A DNA stretch of 64,000 nucleotides from a virus (lineage: Duplodnaviria; Caudoviricetes), in IMG/VR virus record IMGVR_UViG_3300031992_000039, positions 1 through 64,000 of that record; one strand, 5' to 3'. Under the pieces are notes generated by a model. It worked only from the letters and a program-made list of their open reading frames with translations, was not told the origin of the DNA and ran no database searches. The translations under genes and the position numbers were made by a program. This document shows positions 6,973 through 49,177 of this stretch, one piece after another; within the stretch, counting starts at the first letter, position 1, and each line of letters begins with the position of its first letter.

Positions 6973-7956
6973 CATTTGTGTTTCACGAGTTCGTTACGCT
7001 CGCTCCCGAAGGCACTTACATTACATAAGTGATCAGACTATATCATCAATTAAAAATTTCCAATAAAAACCGCGATAAGTTTTTATTTTTCCATTACAAC
7101 AATCACTAATTCTATGTCTATCGCCGTGAATTTTTCTACCAGCTTCCGTTAAACTATTATACTTTTCTATCAAGATATCATCACTATTATATTGGCCTAC
7201 TTTTTTTGATGTAGAAAACTCTTTTCTATCACGAATCTTGAAGTTCGGTTCATCTGAATATGACCAATAATATCCATATGATAGAAATTTTTCTTCTGCC
7301 ATAACCTGTTGTTGTAGCCAACTACCATTATGTCCGGTTACTCGACAGCATTCGGCTAAACTAGGATAAATTGCAACTAGTTTTAAATTTTCATCATAGC
7401 AATAAACTTTTTTTGCCCCCATAGAATTATATTTTTCTAATTTTGCTAATTCTTTGTTTTCTTTTGGCGTAATCCATTCTAAATTATTTACATCATTATT
7501 TAACTTGTTTCCATCTTTATGGTGTACTTCTAATTCTTTATTTTTAGTTGGCAAATAAGTTTCTGCAACCATTCTATGGGCATATAATCTATGAGATTCT
7601 CCATCTATACTAATCGAATAAGTTTTATATCCGTTTTTATAGTTGATTTGACCTTTAAGCCATTTATTAGTTTTAGAATTAAATAATTCTCCTTGTGTTG
7701 TAATGTAATATGTAGTAATTTGACCGTTATAAATATATAACTGCATAATTATTACCTCCTTTAATTGTTTTCTTTTTTCGTAACACTTGTTACTACTTTA
7801 GTCGTTGAACCTTTACCTATACGGTACTTGGCTGCTGATTGCACCATTCATTTATTTTTTAGACATTCACGCTTATCGTTTCCAATTACGTTGTAGTATA
7901 AATGACTCTATAGCGTTTTCCAGCAATTTAAAAAATTTAACGTGAACTAATGGTTA
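6973..7956 (-). mobile_element. Group I intron 2 in terL
   Basis: P1 GUGAAU/GUUCAC with a U.G splice-site pair; AAUUGCUGGAAA and AAUCAGCAGC (P/Q), UCAACGACUA (R) and GAUAUAGUCU (S); terminal G at 6973; splicing joins T+AT into an in-frame Tyr codon. Confidence 0.9.
7033..7746 (-). CDS. Intron-encoded HNH homing endonuclease with NUMOD1-like repeats
   Basis: HRMVA...VHHKDGNKLNN...NLEW motif; C-terminal KTYRGFYWK; stop codon overlaps the intron P7 3' strand. Confidence 0.88.
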   Translation of the reverse strand: MQLYIYNGQITTYYITTQGELFNSKTNKWLKGQINYKNGYKTYSISIDGESHRLYAHRMVAETYLPTKNKELEVHHKDGNKLNNDVNNLEWITPKENKELAKLEKYNSMGAKKVYCYDENLKLVAIYPSLAECCRVTGHNGSWLQQQVMAEEKFLSYGYYWSYSDEPNFKIRDRKEFSTSKKVGQYNSDDILIEKYNSLTEAGRKIHGDRHRISDCCNGKIKTYRGFYWKFLIDDIV

Positions 7957-8233
7957 ATTCACTAGCAAAAGTAGCTTCATTATAAGAAGGCGACATTTTA
8001 AGTTCGCGCACATACTTCCCATCTATAAGTCCGTGAATTACAGGAATTCTGTAATCAAGTCCTATACAAAAATTATGTTTAGGGTCTATAATTGCTTTTT
8101 CAAAAGTATCAATTAGCGCCTCATACGAAAAAGAAGATTTCATTCCCGCACTTGTTGCATATATGACTTGCCGATTTATATTTTCATAGGGATTAACTAA
8201 CCCATTGATTTGACGACGTGAAACGTTCATCTG
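7957..8233 (-). CDS. terL: Terminase large subunit, exon 2
   Basis: (Q)MNVSRR...IYATSAG (motif III-like)...FASE between the two introns; 5' boundary 8233 or 8230 (see findings). Confidence 0.8.
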
Positions 8234-43378: not shown

Positions 43379-43684
43379 TTAAAGCTTGAAAAACTCGTCA
43401 AATAAAGTATCGAAGAAGGGCGTATCTATCGAATCTGAAATCGACATATGAAAGGAACCGTAATCTTTTACAAAATCATTAATAAGCTTATGATATGTAT
43501 CCTGTGCTTTTCGCACATTCTTAAAAGCTTCTTCTACCTCTTTAGCACGAGTTTTACGCTCAGTAGCCAACTTATTCTTTCGCTCCTCTTCTTCCTTTTC
43601 GCGCGCGAGACATTTCTCTTCTTCTTCTAAGCATTCCTGCTCAGTAGAGAAAAACTTCCTTAATTTGTCTGAATAATACTTCAT
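43379..43684 (-). CDS. Hypothetical coiled-coil protein
   Basis: 101 aa, AGGAGG RBS. Confidence 0.65.
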   Translation of the reverse strand: MKYYSDKLRKFFSTEQECLEEEEKCLAREKEEEERKNKLATERKTRAKEVEEAFKNVRKAQDTYHKLINDFVKDYGSFHMSISDSIDTPFFDTLFDEFFKL

Positions 43685-43733
43685 TTAAAAGCCTCCTATT
43701 GCTTTTTTAAGAAATATGGCGTCCTATCGCCAT

Positions 43734-43806
43734 TGGAGGCGGGCACCGACTCGAACGGCATCTAAGGATAATGAGTCCTTTGTGTTACCAGTTACACTAA
43801 CCCGCT
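43734..43806 (-). tRNA. tRNA-Met(CAU), slightly atypical
   Basis: Cloverleaf; loop CTCATTA; A1:C72 mismatch; short T/acceptor junction; CCA encoded. Confidence 0.75.
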
Positions 43807-43810
43807 ATAT

Positions 43811-44291
43811 TTAATCTCTACAGGCTTTTAAAATGCGCTCAGCCCAATTGGGCTCTTCAGCTAAAATATAATCCCATTCAATAGGAGCCTCGTCCAAATT
43901 TACTTCTCCAGAATAATCGTAAAATCTTTCACTATCACCCACAATAAAATGCCCATCAATAGGAAGGTAGTATAATTTTAAATATGGGAAACGCATTAAA
44001 AGGATTTGCGCGAACCAATAACAATTTCCAGATGTCCAGCGCGCATTGGTATCTTTAAAGCGCCGATTTATAAATTCAACGACCTTATTCATCATAAAGG
44101 AATCTCTCACGAATATGCTTATACAGCCCAGGCATCGCACCCTCTTCAACCATTATATCATAAGAAGGTTCCTCGTTTTGTTCAAATGTTCCATAGGCAT
44201 CTACAATATAAACATATCCAGTCTCAACTTCATTACCAATCTTAAAGGAAACAACATCATTTTCCTTATATTTAGGCTTTCCAATCATCTT
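43811..44291 (-). CDS. Two small genes (43811-44092; 44085-44291)
   Basis: GNCYWFA..GHF motif in the first; KOW/SH3-like pattern in the second. Confidence 0.55.
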
Positions 44292-44312
44292 AAATCTGCC
44301 CTTTCTTATTGT

Positions 44313-44389
44313 TGGCACTCCGAAAGGGGCTCGAACCCTTAACCCACGACTTAGAAGGTCGTTGCTCTATCCTACTGAGCTATCGGAGC
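44313..44389 (-). tRNA. tRNA-Arg(UCU)
   Basis: Cloverleaf, loop CTTCTAA, GCCA end. Confidence 0.93.
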
Positions 44390-44393
44390 GAAT

Positions 44394-44479
44394 TGGTGCG
44401 GTTGGAGGGATTTGAACCCTCAAGGATTTCTCCCGACGGATTTTAAGTCCGTTGTGTATGCCTGCTCCACCACAACCGC
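44394..44479 (-). tRNA. tRNA-Leu(UAA)
   Basis: Loop CTTAAAA, long variable arm, ACCA end. Confidence 0.93.
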
Positions 44480-44770
44480 ATTTAAAAGTCAGTATCTGCC
44501 TACAAGTTACTCTTCTCTTTTGTCGTTTTAAAAGGTACTCTTCGCTTCAATTCGGCAAATACTGACTTAATTTGGTACCAGTGACGCAACCTTTCCGGAC
44601 TAAGCTATTAACGGACGGTCTGATCCGACATTAATTTTAAGGGATAATGTAAACCTCCAGTAACCATCCACTTACTGGCGTGCCAACATCCCCTATGCTG
44701 GGAGGAGTCGTTTACTTCTTCAAAAGGGTTTCTCTCCTTTTGGATACGGCGCGGGGACTACCGCGCAGTT

Positions 44771-44829
44771 TTACTCCAGCCGGACTCGAACCGACGACCT
44801 CAAGCTCTCGCCATCTGAGCTATGGAGTA
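44771..44829 (-). ncRNA. tRNA-like RNA lacking the anticodon arm
   Basis: TACTCCA/TGGAGTA acceptor, GCTC/GAGC D arm and GTCGG-TTCGAGT-CCGGC T arm, joined by only TTGAGGTC. Confidence 0.7.
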
Positions 44830-44834
44830 ATAAT

Positions 44835-45277
44835 TTTGCCTCGCACTCTTAAATTAATTAGAATTACAGGGAACGTGGCTCTCCTGCGTATTCTTTTTTG
44901 TTGCCCAAGGCGTCCCACTCGCTTACTCTAGTCCTACCTTATCATCAGATTCAAAGCATTTTATTGGCGAAATAAATACTTTTTCCTAGAACCTTGGCAA
45001 TAGCAGCAACCTCACAATAAGCTGAAATCTGCTTGGCCCGAAGAGCGCCACTCTTGAGCGGCCTTTATCTACACATACACGGTAGAAAGGTTTTTGAATC
45101 CTTAAATTCGCTTTAGTCTGTTCCACGGCTTCCTTGCTGCCTCTCGGCGAGCTATAGCCGAAATTTCACGCGTAACAGGTACTGTTGTATTAGAGTTCGC
45201 TTCCCTAACTGGGGGGCATCCAGTAGACCTCTCTTCTACTTCTTCCGCGGTAAGTAGAAGTTGATATTGCGAATTTT
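44835..45277 (-). ncRNA. Large structured ncRNA candidate A (about 440 nt)
   Basis: Own sigma-A promoter at about 45300-45330; no credible ORF; long-range stems and crossing pairings. Confidence 0.6.
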
Positions 45278-45403
45278 CTTTTTCCTTTTCTTATGTATAT
45301 ATTATATAAGAAATTTAAAACTTTTTCAAATTTTTAAATACCTTTCTCATATATCCGCAAATATTGAGCTTTCACCGTCAGTCGCGCGAACTTCGGAGGG
45401 CAT

Positions 45404-45479
45404 TGGAGCCAATGAACGGAATCGAACCGTTGACCTGATACTTACAAGGCAACTGCTCTGCCTGCTGAGCTACATTGGC
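45404..45479 (-). tRNA. tRNA-Thr(UGU)
   Basis: Loop CTTGTAA, TCCA end. Confidence 0.9.
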
Positions 45480-45595
45480 ATTATAGCAGACTTCTCCCAA
45501 CAAGTGTGGATACGGCTTGTACCGCAGAGCCCTGTCGTCTTCTCCGTATCTGCCAGAGGGCTAAACCCAACGGGGTACTCCTAGGATGTACTAAT

Positions 45596-45673
45596 TGGCG
45601 CCTCCACTTGGACTTGAACCAAGGGCCTACGGTTTAACAGACCGTCGCTACCAACCAGCTGAGCTATAGAGGC
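45596..45673 (-). tRNA. tRNA-Asn(GUU)
   Basis: Loop CTGTTAA, GCCA end. Confidence 0.9.
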
Positions 45674-46018
45674 ACGCGCCCTACTTCTTTTTTTAATGAG
45701 GTTGCTTGTAGGATACATTCCTCAGGCAAGGGAAAGGTAATTATCCCTTTGGTAGATAAGCTAATGGTTAACCGGTGGAACCATTATCCCCGCAGGTGGG
45801 TTTTTCTCGAGACCGGAACCCTCTCCATATCAATATACAATTTAAGTAGGAATGAATTGTAGCGAACTACTTAAAAGGAACAGCACTCTTTGAGATTCTC
45901 TGCTGTTTGAACTACGAGATGCTTGCGTTGCCTTACTTATGGCTGGTCGCCTGATTACCCTCCAGCGGTGCTGCTCACTTTCGTGATACTATTGAACTTT
46001 CTCACACTTGGAGCCTTG

Positions 46019-46124
46019 TCGGGCGGGCAGGACTCGAACCTACCACCGCAGCTCATACTTCTCCTCCTATAACTCACTCGCCAAGAGGATTTTCGCAGCC
46101 TCGTTACCGTTACGATACGCCCGA
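46019..46124 (-). ncRNA. tRNA-like RNA with a greatly extended anticodon arm
   Basis: TCGGGCG/CGCCCGA acceptor, TCGT/ACGA D arm, GGTAGG-TTCGAGT-CCTGCC T arm, and an arm of about 55 nt containing TCCTCTT/AGGAGGA. Confidence 0.65.
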
Positions 46125-46129
46125 TAAAA

Positions 46130-46203
46130 TGGAGCAGGAAACGGGACTTGAACCCGCAATGTCGCCTTGGAGGGGCGAAGTGTTACCATTACACTATTCC
46201 TGC
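46130..46203 (-). tRNA. tRNA-Gly(UCC) with C33
   Basis: Loop CCTCCAA, TCCA end. Confidence 0.88.
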
Positions 46204-46325
46204 AATTAAGATGCGGACTGATGAATCTCCTACCACAGCCGCGAGGCCCATATTATATTATACTGCACCTCGTATCTGATAGATGCGACACCGTCGTGTT
46301 GGGAGAATGGCCATCCGTGCAGTTC

Positions 46326-46399
46326 TGGCGGGGGATGGTGGTATCGATCCACCACCGTGACAGTCAAAGTGTCATGTGCTACCACTACACCAATCCCCT
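46326..46399 (-). tRNA. tRNA-Gln(UUG)
   Basis: Loop CTTTGAC; T loop ATCGATA; GCCA end. Confidence 0.88.
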
Positions 46400-46454
46400 A
46401 TATCTTCTATTATTAAGCAGAAAAATAATAATATGATTCTATAAAATTGAACCT

Positions 46455-46510
46455 CAAAATTCGAACCGCGAGTATTTTTAACTGCGCCTTAGGCCTCTTG
46501 GCTACACCGC
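46455..46510 (-). pseudogene. Degenerate tRNA remnant
   Basis: GCGGTG-TAGCCAAGAGGCCTAAGGC D arm and GGTTCGAAT, but no anticodon or acceptor pairing. Confidence 0.5.
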
Positions 46511-46516
46511 AATAAT

Positions 46517-46966
46517 TTATGTTAGACAAGTTATACACTCACCGGGAGATATTTGCATATGCACCCAAGCTTCTAGTTGGTCGTAAATACACTCTTCTGA
46601 ACTATTCCAAAAATTCGTACACCCTCCAAAAGTCATTACTGAGGTAGGCTTATCCGTAACCTGAAACACATAAACAGGTTTCCCAATTCCAAAAGCATAT
46701 CCCTGCTCCCAATTAGTGCCGGCTGTACTCTCTCGTCCAGTTGATATAACTACCATCATATCACAATTTTTTATTTGATCTATATCGGTCTTAAATACTT
46801 TAAGTGCCCATAGTTCTTGGGTCATATCCCAAGCATTAGGGACCTTAAAATCAAAGGGACAATATACTATCAATCCCTTTTTACGAAGAAAGGCCGCGAT
46901 ATTCTTCATTCGTGTCCTATCATTTGAATCACAAGAGCCCGCGAGGTATACCTTACCAGTTCTCAT
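46517..46966 (-). CDS. Nucleoside 2-deoxyribosyltransferase-family protein
   Basis: VYLAG, D...I..CD and GTNWEQGYA..GKPV; likely start MRTGK. Confidence 0.8.
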   Translation of the reverse strand: MRTGKVYLAGSCDSNDRTRMKNIAAFLRKKGLIVYCPFDFKVPNAWDMTQELWALKVFKTDIDQIKNCDMMVVISTGRESTAGTNWEQGYAFGIGKPVYVFQVTDKPTSVMTFGGCTNFWNSSEECIYDQLEAWVHMQISPGECITCLT

Positions 46967-47147
46967 CATCTTCTTCTCCCTCAAAGAAATTAAATCCACA
47001 AATGGGACATTCATTAAGAAGTTCGTGCTTAAAATCGCATTTATATATGGGCTCCCAGCATTCGGGACATTCAAAGAATTCCTCTTCCCAATCAACAAAG
47101 GCGCCGTAGTTTTCCTCTACATACTTTGCAGCTTCTCCCCAATTCAT
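46953..47147 (-). CDS. Small Zn-ribbon protein
   Basis: CPEC...CPIC; own promoter. Confidence 0.7.
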   Translation of the reverse strand: MNWGEAAKYVEENYGAFVDWEEEFFECPECWEPIYKCDFKHELLNECPICGFNFFEGEEDDENW

Positions 47148-47244
47148 TTTTATCCCTCACTTTCTATATAAAGTATACCAAAAATTTTAGGAAAAATCAA
47201 ATTTATAATCATCTTTGTTAAAGTTCTACTATAAAGATTAAATG

Positions 47245-47330
47245 TGTAGACGGTGGGATTTGAATCCACGAATGCTCATCACATCATCTGTTTTCAAGAC
47301 AGACGCCATAGACCTCTCGGACACGTCTCC
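47245..47330 (-). tRNA. tRNA-Ser(UGA), partly degenerate
   Basis: Loop CTTGAAA and long variable arm; mismatches in acceptor and T stems; no CCA. Confidence 0.75.
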
Positions 47331-47334
47331 ATGA

Positions 47335-47846
47335 AAAACAGCGGTAACCGCCAATAAGTGTAACCCGCTGCTGATCCGGTCATCACCCCACACCAGTACA
47401 CTGGGATGCATCTTCTAGATCTTTTCGCTCTTACTCTCGCTCGTCAATTGCGATGCGGGAAGCGACGGTTGTATGCGAATGAAGTTAGTTAATTTCTAGC
47501 GGCCGCTGATATCTTCCTTTCATGCCGCATTTAGACAGCAGCTACCTGTCCCCAGCTAATGGCTCGTTTCGTTACAATGACCAGGCTCCGAGCCATTTCC
47601 CACCTGTAACTTCATTCGCGTGCGGGTCTGGTTTTAGCACCCCGCATGATCGGCCTCAGCAAATTCCTACCGACTTTCCTGCCTAATTAGCAGGTCTAGT
47701 TGCACTTAATAGTCTACCGGAAGTTGATCGAGTTCCCGGAGGTGGCGGACTCACCTTTGCGTGGGAGTTTGTGTCTATATAGGCACTTGGGCGGTTTACT
47801 CGAACACAAGTTACTTGCAAACTGTGTTCTAAGATTGCTCCCACAA
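47335..47846 (-). ncRNA. Large structured ncRNA candidate B (about 510 nt)
   Basis: Fills the gap between two tRNAs; 13-bp and 9-bp perfect stems and many hairpins; GC-rich; no credible ORF. Confidence 0.65.
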
Positions 47847-47847
47847 A

Positions 47848-47941
47848 TGGCGGAAGTGGCAGGGTTCGAACCTGCAAAGTGGTGACGTCAAACCACAGGG
47901 ATTTAGAATCCCCCGCCTTTAACCTATTTGGCTACACTTCC
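47848..47941 (-). tRNA. Amber suppressor tRNA (CUA) with a Ser-like body
   Basis: GGGGA-TTCTAAA-TCCCT anticodon arm, long variable arm, G73, GGAAGTG/CACTTCC acceptor and CCA. Confidence 0.88.
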
Positions 47942-47979
47942 ATAACAGCCTTGGTCTTTGTTGGTCGAGGCGGTAAGAT

Positions 47980-48055
47980 TGGTGCGCCCTCCGGGGCTCG
48001 AACCCGGGGCACGCGGATTAAAAGTCCGCTGCTCTACCACCTGAGCTAAGGGCGC
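47980..48055 (-). tRNA. tRNA-Lys(UUU)
   Basis: Loop CTTTTAA, ACCA end. Confidence 0.93.
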
Positions 48056-48064
48056 ATATAAATC

Positions 48065-48253
48065 TTAATACTTCGCCGTCCTATGAAGCAGCAAAATAAT
48101 AAGAGGAACGAATATAAGTAAGATTTCTCCACCATACAGTGACGGATCAGCCCTGTGCACCATCGCATAGGGTCTCGCGCAGAAAAACAATCCCACACCA
48201 AGTGCTGCAGCAGCAAGGTAACTACTCACCACTTTTAAAAATCTCATATTCAT
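48065..48253 (-). CDS. Small two-TM membrane protein
   Basis: Two hydrophobic stretches; own promoter. Confidence 0.6.
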   Translation of the reverse strand: MNMRFLKVVSSYLAAAALGVGLFFCARPYAMVHRADPSLYGGEILLIFVPLIILLLHRTAKY

Positions 48254-48307
48254 TCCCCTTTCTTTTCAGTATAAATATTATATAAAAAATTTAATGAAAA
48301 TTCAAAT

Positions 48308-49177
48308 TTACTTCTCCGCACTAAAAAATAAATTTATAAACAAATCTTCATTATAATAAGGTATCGTACTTATCCAGCCATAAAACTCATTAGATAATCC
48401 ATCAAAAATACTATCGAATCTATTATGGTAGACAACCTTTTTCCCAAAAAGCATACGAGGTGAATCGTCGTCTATTTGGATGAAAGTAGATATCTCTAAA
48501 TTTAGACGATATAAAAGGTCTTCTCTAATTCTATCAAATTCTTGGGGTTCAACCTCTTGGTTAAAAATTCGATAGCGCGCACCATCAACTCCATGGCAAA
48601 ACAAACAATTCTCTGAGTTAATCACAAAACCACAAAAATAACAACTGGTCAATTCTTTACACTTATATAAAAATCCTCCATCATCTATATCTGAAGAACT
48701 TATAATACAATTCCCCCAAGTCACATCTTTGCTGTTTACAACATTAAATGAGGTACTTATGCGCTCCGAGTCTATAATTTTTTCGCTCGCTCTTACATTA
48801 GATGAGCCATGAATGTATTTAGATTTAGTAATAAAAGAACTATTATTTATACTATTAGAATCCTCTACATTTTTCGATCTAAACACATAATTGCTTTTAT
48901 TTATATCCTCTGAATAAGAAACAAAACTACTATTTTTTACTCTACTACTATATAGTACAGACACACTTTTCTCTATTTCACAAATTTTGTTATATATCTC
49001 TTCCTCTTCTTCAGAAAGTTTAAAATAAATTTTTATAAAATAGAAGAACTCTTTATCAAACTTGGGATTATTAAATACTTCAAGAATTTCCGCGCCTTCC
49101 GGATATTCCTTTTTAAAAAGTTCAATATCAGGCTTATTTGCCGCAAATTTTTCTAAATTCTCAACTGTTATTCTCAT
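48308..49177 (-). CDS. Beta-solenoid repeat protein
   Basis: Hexapeptide-like S..I/V..S repeats and C.FC repeats. Confidence 0.6.
   Translation of the reverse strand: MRITVENLEKFAANKPDIELFKKEYPEGAEILEVFNNPKFDKEFFYFIKIYFKLSEEEEEIYNKICEIEKSVSVLYSSRVKNSSFVSYSEDINKSNYVFRSKNVEDSNSINNSSFITKSKYIHGSSNVRASEKIIDSERISTSFNVVNSKDVTWGNCIISSSDIDDGGFLYKCKELTSCYFCGFVINSENCLFCHGVDGARYRIFNQEVEPQEFDRIREDLLYRLNLEISTFIQIDDDSPRMLFGKKVVYHNRFDSIFDGLSNEFYGWISTIPYYNEDLFINLFFSAEK

Follow-up and report, generated by a model that had tools for sequence, protein, structure and literature searches.

The question raised by this locus is whether the DNA that separates two tRNA genes of a phage holds one large structured RNA, a smaller RNA with relatives in other phages, or simply spacer. 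The phage genome is complete at 111,327 bp and has direct terminal repeats; the window analyzed here is its first 64 kb, with genes for a portal protein, topoisomerase II, an RNA ligase, a ClpP-type protease, and a sigma factor, and the sequencing runs that contain this sheep-rumen phage are of sheep and bovine gut origin. An island of ten tRNA genes with long, G+C-richer spacers lies on the minus strand at 43.7 to 48.1 kb, and the stretch 45277-44835 (G+C 0.43 to 0.46 versus approximately 0.35 for the genome) fills most of the spacer between tRNA-Thr and tRNA-Leu, with an RNA ligase and a kinase-like protein coded nearby. The first-pass annotation described this stretch as an RNA of two domains with its own promoter and two crossing pairings, ending just before a tRNA-like element that lacks an anticodon. 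That observation is partly confirmed here, and its interpretation is partly supported: the evidence favors a structured, untranslated minus-strand RNA with its own promoter, but not one RNA of 443 nt held together by two pseudoknots. What is well supported is that the segment 45276-45104 (minus strand) is a member of an uncatalogued family of structured RNAs, approximately 170 nt in length, that is present in the tRNA arrays of rumen and gut phages.

The non-coding character of the stretch stands, as no open reading frame of note is present under translation table 11 or with TAG read as glutamine. The latter code was checked because the island carries a tRNA with a CUA anticodon; the open reading frames of the window are not visibly longer when TAG is read as Gln. 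The CUA-anticodon tRNA is located at 47848-47941, and such tRNAs are common in related arrays (L029, L033, L041, L045, L047, L051, and L055), with UUA-anticodon tRNAs also observed in L028 and L041. The promoter also stands: a sigma-70-type element at 45329-45301 on the minus strand has a −35 box TTGAAA (45329-45324), a 17-nt spacer, and a −10 box TATAAT (45306-45301), with 11 of 12 matches. The first helix described below begins 25 nt after the promoter ends, the promoter sequence is identical in the closest related locus (L009), and the block that bears it (45296-45334) is found on many contigs in all four of four runs and at other places in related loci. A promoter block of approximately 40 to 55 nt recurs in the window at 45296-45334, 47154-47210, and 48256-48309 and on many related phage contigs, with very high contig depth in four of four runs; it probably represents the promoter consensus for a single temporal class of genes in this phage group.

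All of the pairings proposed at first pass are present on the minus strand (AAAUUCGC/GCGAAUUU, GAUUCAAA/UUUGAAUC, GCAGCAA/UUGCUGC, and UUGCCAAGG/CCUUGGGCAA). By our estimate, a sequence of 443 nt should contain one to two perfect 8-bp matches by chance, and the folding is no more stable than that of dinucleotide shuffles (whole stretch, z = 0.16; 3' 273 nt, z = 0.07; minimum-free-energy z-scores of approximately 0 for either strand). On their own, the pairings thus carry no weight. Since z-scores this close to 0 are uninformative, they are not counted against the family described here. Comparison with known RNA families was likewise silent, as a search with Rfam 15 over 43500-48500 left the stretch without any match even at E values up to 10, and no Rfam family overlaps the new RNA in the window or in the other loci.

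Relatives of the stretch were sought first through loci anchored on the neighboring ClpP gene. This yielded one close relative, L009, which is 89% identical in nucleotide sequence to window 45410-44405, versus 74 to 77% for the flanking protein-coding DNA; the stretch is more conserved than the neighboring genes, and the identity is a mosaic in which blocks of 96 to 99% adjoin blocks of approximately 75%. No copy of the stretch was detectable in the ClpP-anchored loci L010 to L017. An nhmmer profile revealed a much-diverged copy of the first approximately 170 nt in L004, where domains 2 and 3 of the stretch are absent. Common to the window, L009, and L004 is a core of the form AUACAACAGUACC ... 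AAUUYCGGCUAUA ... GGRAGCCGU-RGAA, and a gapped pattern built from this shared core was searched in metagenome contigs, with matches in 36 loci; a looser pattern gave one match, on a 130-kb sheep-rumen MAG contig, where the covariance model described below also detects a copy. L056, from an Owenweeksia MAG, was rejected as a member, being a chance match to the loose pattern with no hit to the covariance model.

As MAFFT alone misaligned the variable 5' half, the alignment was built from a covariance model (R1) of a three-sequence seed followed by Infernal realignment. R1 recovers 42 credible copies on approximately 40 rumen or gut phage contigs. L039 contributes two of these, and divergent ones come from L001 and L002, which are IMG/VR relatives of the phage; the score of the window itself (195 bits) arises by construction, as the window supplied one of the three sequences of the seed. 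The genome has no second copy of the family RNA, which is therefore unrelated to the large RNA at 47.3 kb, in agreement with the lack of similarity already noticed at first pass. The core pattern was absent from IMG/VR viral contigs and, in its strict form, from GTDB genomes, and blastn of the family RNA against a cultured-phage collection gave no match. The DNA patterns GAGGCAGCAAGGAAGCCGTGG, which falls within the hypervariable segment of the RNA, and GGTTGCTGCTATTGCCAAGG were both absent from viral contigs, the second also from metagenome contigs. Searches with neighboring proteins were no more productive, with four matches and no new loci for a YunG-like protein and none in IMG/VR for a 289-amino-acid protein. 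In the literature, we found no description of the core sequence or of similar RNAs. A likeness of ACAGUACC...CGGCUAUA to the P4 region of RNase P RNA was considered and rejected, as the segments are not contiguous in the same manner and no RNase P model matches.

The structure that emerges from R1 and its pair counts covers 173 nt (45276-45104) and corresponds to domain 1 of the first-pass annotation. As predicted from the alignment, the RNA is a closing helix, P1, around a multi-helix core of P2 to P5 and P7. P1 (45276-45269/45111-45104) is the helix named at first pass as closing domain 1, with 93% of cells paired in the family, and the inner long-range helix P3 (45229-45225/45119-45115) has 97% of cells paired; both keep a constant position with respect to the conserved 3' motif, with double changes in every pair. 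The hairpins proposed at 45233-45260 and 45208-45224 correspond to P2 (45260-45252/45241-45233) and P4 (45224-45220/45212-45208) of the model, respectively, and like P1 they show many compensatory changes among relatives, with all P2 pairs kept in L009. R1 further places P5 at 45207-45203/45195-45191 and P7 (CGGCU/AGCCG) at 45160-45156/45130-45126. P7 is conserved across the family and covaries in divergent copies, where it becomes UGGCG/CGCCA or GUGGG/CCCAC. In L009, P1 changes from AAAUUCGC/GCGAAUUU to AAAUCAC/GUGAUUU, with one G-C pair replaced by A-U and one whole pair deleted.

Across the family, 94.3% of cells hold a standard pair, compared with 59.6% when partners are shuffled and 30 to 40% when partners are slid, and the covariation score is 0.647, against 0.154 and less than 0.1 for the same two controls; changes on both sides are seen in 35 of 36 pairs, so that all six helices have covariation behind them. 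The alignment behind these counts was fitted to the model structure, which inflates the pairing somewhat, although the slid and shuffled controls are far lower and a parse of the raw sequences by eye yields the same helices. The counts supersede a broader test of cognate versus non-cognate helices, in which P3 gave p = 6e-9 and the A/U-rich P1, with large windows, a weak p = 6.5e-4. The strand of the RNA is fixed because G-U pairs are frequent. Approximately 35 unpaired or junction nucleotides are near-invariant, including the unpaired core AUACAACAGUACC (45190-45178), which is altered only in the divergent copies L001, L002, and L055 and is invariant in the pattern-found copies, partly by construction, because the search pattern behind most copies demanded the core motif. 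The conserved core, with P7, is present in the window at 45190-45122. By contrast with these conserved positions, the segment between GGCUAUA and GGRAGCCGU is hypervariable in both length and sequence, and the RNA ranges from approximately 145 to 195 nt in size.

When the family is placed in its genomic context, a consistent link with tRNA genes is apparent. All 157 tRNAs within 2 kb of family copies are on the same strand as the copy, with none opposite, and 34 of the 42 copies have a tRNA within 500 nt. Six copies start at most 7 nt after a tRNA, and three end at most 16 nt before one. Where the copy does not follow a tRNA, a strong promoter is often present, with its end 7 to 25 nt before P1, as in the window and L009, L019, L037, L030, and L040/L048. 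Given either a promoter or a tRNA just before P1, the mature 5' end is probably near P1 in both arrangements. The copy in the window is flanked on its own strand by tRNA-Thr, 128 nt upstream, and by tRNA-Leu, 625 nt downstream.

On the 3' side of the stretch, a tRNA-shaped element at 44829-44771 has acceptor, D, and T arms without an anticodon arm, matching RF00005 with 40.5 bits over 59 nt. Its acceptor and T stems, and also the hairpin that follows, are kept in L009 by compensatory changes. Neither ARAGORN nor Rfam (RF00023 and the permuted forms) finds a tmRNA in the window, and unlike a tmRNA the element is contiguous and has no tag frame. We consider it likely that this element is an RNase P/Z processing signal on the 3' side of the RNA, and processing at tRNA-shaped elements is plausible in general because members elsewhere abut tRNAs within 0 to 16 nt. 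A sheep-gut metatranscriptome contains a 1332-nt contig that matches 44579-45700 without a difference at a depth of 159, and the adjoining contig (44300-44533) has a depth of 5.5; this suggests an abundant RNA, although contigs cannot prove transcription, ends, or processing. For the same reason, an adapter-tagged contig end at 44579 in run X3, although it hints at an RNA end, is not counted as evidence.

Several elements in this neighborhood and in related arrays can be recorded beside the tRNA-like element. Short elements of 58 to 80 nt that are kin to it occur at L042:2279-2359 (minus strand), L028:7046-7125 (plus strand), and L041:7134-7191 (minus strand) and match only the tRNA-like ends of tmRNA models, or the tRNA model without the anticodon arm; those in L041 and L042 lie 40 to 120 nt downstream of a family RNA. 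The approximately 290 nt between the tRNA-like element and tRNA-Leu (44770-44480, minus strand) are approximately 96% identical in L009, recur in runs X5, X6, and X8, and begin with a covarying hairpin (GCGCGG..CCGCGC to GCGCAG..CUGCGC); L004 has a related piece (7612-7702) ahead of its family RNA, and the segment is probably another conserved RNA module.

A further feature of the family, and the one most suggestive of how it might act, is a pair of palindromic sites. The first in the window is CCGCGG in the loop of P2 (45250-45245), and the second is ACGCGU (45173-45168), which lies between the core and AAUUUCGG, with its center 5 nt before the latter. The second site is family-wide. A palindrome of at least 6 nt is found there in 20 of 24 non-redundant members, where 2.7 are expected and none of 2000 shuffles gave more than 9, and in all 24 at least 4 nt form a Watson-Crick palindrome; in 26 of 34 copies its center is 5 to 6 nt before AAUUYCGG. 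Approximately 20 different palindromes occupy this site, such as GUGCAC, UGCGCA, GAGCUC, GGUACC, GACGUC, UUGCAA, CCGCGG, GCUAGC, and UUCGCGAA in addition to that of the window. L009 has only a wobble-containing palindrome (AUGCGU), and one subgroup has only GCGC with complementary flanks and a bulge. The P2-loop palindrome is carried by a subgroup with a GAGA junction, to which the window belongs, and is absent from approximately half of the family; at least 6 nt are palindromic in 10 of 19 non-redundant members, against 1.8 expected. Here too the sequence varies, from CCGCGG in the window to CCAUGG in L009, CUGCAG in run X5, and GAUAUC in L004, with AGCGCU, CCUAGG, and UGUACA elsewhere.

The inner bases of the palindromes thus change between phages with the symmetry kept, and as the bases at the center of a 6-nt palindrome are adjacent and so unable to pair within the same strand, this points to pairing between two copies of the RNA. 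Pairing of the first site with the second within one molecule was considered and rejected, since no more than two lineages have a 4-nt core common to both sites, and no covariation links one site to the other. There is precedent for reading symmetry in this way: covariation of palindromes was taken as support for symmetric kissing loops revealed by cryo-EM of OLE and GOLLD (Kretsch et al., PMC12286853), and a 2026 review places palindromic pairing among the contacts of RNA multimers. The palindromic pattern accordingly suggests, at the level of sequence, that the family RNAs may form homo-oligomers.

Taken together, the explanation that we favor, with reasonable though far from complete confidence, is that the locus encodes a member of an approximately 170-nt family of tRNA-array RNAs that is released by tRNA-processing enzymes, pairs with itself through its palindromes, and in this lineage carries a 3' extension. 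The family RNA would be cut from the array transcript by RNase P and RNase Z; in the window, the cuts would fall at the flanking tRNAs and at the tRNA-like element that lacks an anticodon. Each palindrome could then pair with the same palindrome of another copy, such that members with a single palindrome would form homodimers, and those with two, including that of the window, could form rings, cages, or chain-like homo-oligomers in the manner of ROOL and GOLLD. By analogy with what has been proposed for those two RNAs, the most likely field of action would be phage tRNA and translation biology during infection.

ROOL and GOLLD are the known RNAs that the family most resembles in niche and in its predicted tendency to self-assemble. 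Both are non-coding, highly structured, and located in phage or prophage tRNA arrays; ROOL has been found in rumen samples, and both form homo-oligomers, partly through symmetric kissing loops. They differ from the new family in size, at approximately 580 and 800 nt, being three to five times larger, and share no sequence or structure match with it; further, their assembly has been observed, whereas that of the new family is predicted from sequence symmetry. ROOL (RF03087; 574 positions, gathering score 99.1 bits) gave no hit in 43500-48500 at E values up to 10, nor elsewhere in the genome of this phage, and GOLLD (RF01998) gave no covariance-model hit in the window or the other loci. The same Rfam search recovers true ROOL RNAs at 264 to 310 bits in related loci, and six of these loci have ROOL and the new family in the same array: L001:7843-8450, L002:6804-7400, L028:489-1137, L029:5598-6197 (minus strand), L041:156-757 (minus strand), and L048:9532-10132. 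In L001, ROOL lies only approximately 195 nt upstream of the family copy.

Other comparisons each capture one aspect of the family. The dimer initiation site (DIS) of HIV-1 is a 6-nt palindrome (GCGCGC or GUGCAC) with purine flanks in a hairpin loop, which drives homodimerization and varies in sequence between strains while remaining palindromic. The logic of a palindromic loop is the same in both cases, although the DIS is part of a retroviral genome, offers a single site instead of two, and is unrelated in sequence and context. Bacteriophage T4 encodes RNA C and RNA D (species 1 and 2), small stable non-coding RNAs that lie among the phage tRNA genes and are cotranscribed and processed with the tRNAs. 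They are the classical precedent for stable RNAs within a phage tRNA cluster, but are smaller and are compared here by description only, and we know of no palindromic signature in them. The pRNA of phi29, a phage RNA of approximately 120 to 170 nt, forms rings through loop-loop pairing, as reviewed elsewhere; in that case the loops are complementary hand in hand rather than self-complementary, the gene lies beside the packaging genes, and no similarity to the new family is seen.

The alternative that survives best is that the family RNA is real but monomeric, as a ribozyme, a binder of a protein or ligand, or a decoy for host nucleases directed at tRNA, with the palindromes serving as DNA sites for a dimeric protein or as tiny hairpins. 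The approximately 35 near-invariant junction nucleotides do resemble a catalytic or binding core, the longer palindromes (8 to 10 nt) could make mini-hairpins of 2 to 3 bp, and the nearby RNA ligase and kinase-like protein would fit a role in tRNA repair. Most palindromes, however, are 6 nt in length and unable to fold on themselves, and their differences among close relatives argue against recognition by a sequence-specific DNA-binding protein. As the P2 palindrome also sits in the loop of a covarying RNA hairpin and no Rfam ribozyme or aptamer model matches, we hold a monomeric RNA to be unlikely, while still a serious competitor to the self-pairing family RNA.

A bolder form of the self-pairing explanation can also be envisaged, in which the family would join ROOL and GOLLD as a third class of self-assembling phage RNAs, of much smaller size. 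With two independent self-complementary contacts, the 170-nt subunits could generate closed dihedral rings or cages, or filaments, and in the lineage of the window such an assembly would bear a tethered arm of 270 nt and an anticodon-less tRNA mimic, comparable to the embedded tRNAs of some GOLLD RNAs. It could be speculated that the assembly in this way concentrates or shields tRNA-shaped RNAs during infection. We regard this extended proposal as doubtful, at about one chance in five.

Less probable again is the first-pass model itself, a single RNA of approximately 443 nt in which two domains are locked by two pseudoknots and released at the tRNA-like element. In its favor, besides the presence of all proposed pairings, the whole stretch is conserved in L009 and spanned by a single metatranscriptome contig, and both strands of one crossing pairing, GCAGCAA and UUGCUGC, are unchanged in L009. 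Against it, only the first 173 nt have relatives beyond near-identical copies, and domain 1 occurs without domains 2 and 3 in L004 and approximately 40 other loci. The remaining 273 nt (45103-44831), comprising domain 2 and the rest of the stretch, are approximately 96% identical in L009 and otherwise match only near-identical contigs in other runs. When domains 2 and 3 and the region downstream were searched as nhmmer profiles, the matches were confined to L009 and a short piece in L004. A single compensatory pair is seen there, in the hairpin GGCC..AAGAGUGGCGCUCUU..GGGCC. In DNA runs X5 and X6, from two studies, position 44830 is joined to 44896 with AA in place of 44895-44831, so that the 65 nt directly 5' of the tRNA-like element form an optional module and this portion of the 3' part is dispensable.

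The helix proposed to close domain 2 is present in the sequence, but its outer two of eight pairs are lost in L009 and its 5' strand is variable in run X5. The pseudoknot 45134-45140/45003-45009 places its GCAGCAA strand in the hypervariable segment, which has deletions in run X5, and shows zero covariation. The pairing 44992-45000/44901-44910 is invariant in the few relatives, as is the hairpin 45062-45090. The hairpin proposed at 45144-45161 is probably wrong, because it competes with the conserved P7 for the 5' strand of that helix and keeps only three of its five pairs in L009. Covariation among homologs thus bears out P1, P2, and P4 and fails to do so for either crossing pairing; together with a fold energy equal to that of shuffles, this makes the 443-nt RNA quite improbable. 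Segment 45103-44831 is instead a lineage-specific extension that may be a tether to the family RNA or a separate RNA.

The last reading, a functionless spacer or leader of the tRNA transcript conserved through recent phage recombination, is very unlikely: the mosaic identity to L009 is what recombination would give and domains 2 and 3 lack a thermodynamic or covariation signal, but domain 1 covaries across distant phages. For domains 2 and 3 the reading is less improbable, although related versions occur in the runs of several studies and the G+C content is raised.

Natural RNA-only assemblies (ROOL, GOLLD, and OLE) were first seen in 2024 and 2025. If the self-pairing reading of the family is true, the tRNA-array niche would hold several unrelated self-assembling RNA families, of which this one has an unusually clear, sequence-readable self-pairing signature at one or two sites. 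A small and easily synthesized RNA in the same niche could be a tractable system in which to study the assembly and role of tRNA-array RNAs, and the approximately 40 variants with different palindromes amount to mutagenesis already carried out in nature, from which orthogonal RNA building blocks could also be developed.

Further observations concern other contents of these phages. Within the same arrays, orphan RNAs that are already catalogued (drum, RAGATH-33, and DUF3800-XI) occur at L021:1493-1608, L041:2999-3123 (minus strand), and L002:4236-4286. L004 contains two unusual tRNA-shaped genes. That at 7985-8108 resembles tRNA-Leu(UAA) with a 51-nt insertion at the anticodon arm and is not called by ARAGORN; a group I intron was considered for the insertion and rejected, as it is too short. 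The second, at 7180-7295, is of type II, with the acceptor GGUGUAG/CUACACC, a long D loop, and a structured insert of approximately 60 nt in place of the anticodon region. In the window itself, the long region 12500-36000 has few open reading frames of more than 150 amino acids under table 11 or with TAG read as Gln, and it probably holds many small genes.
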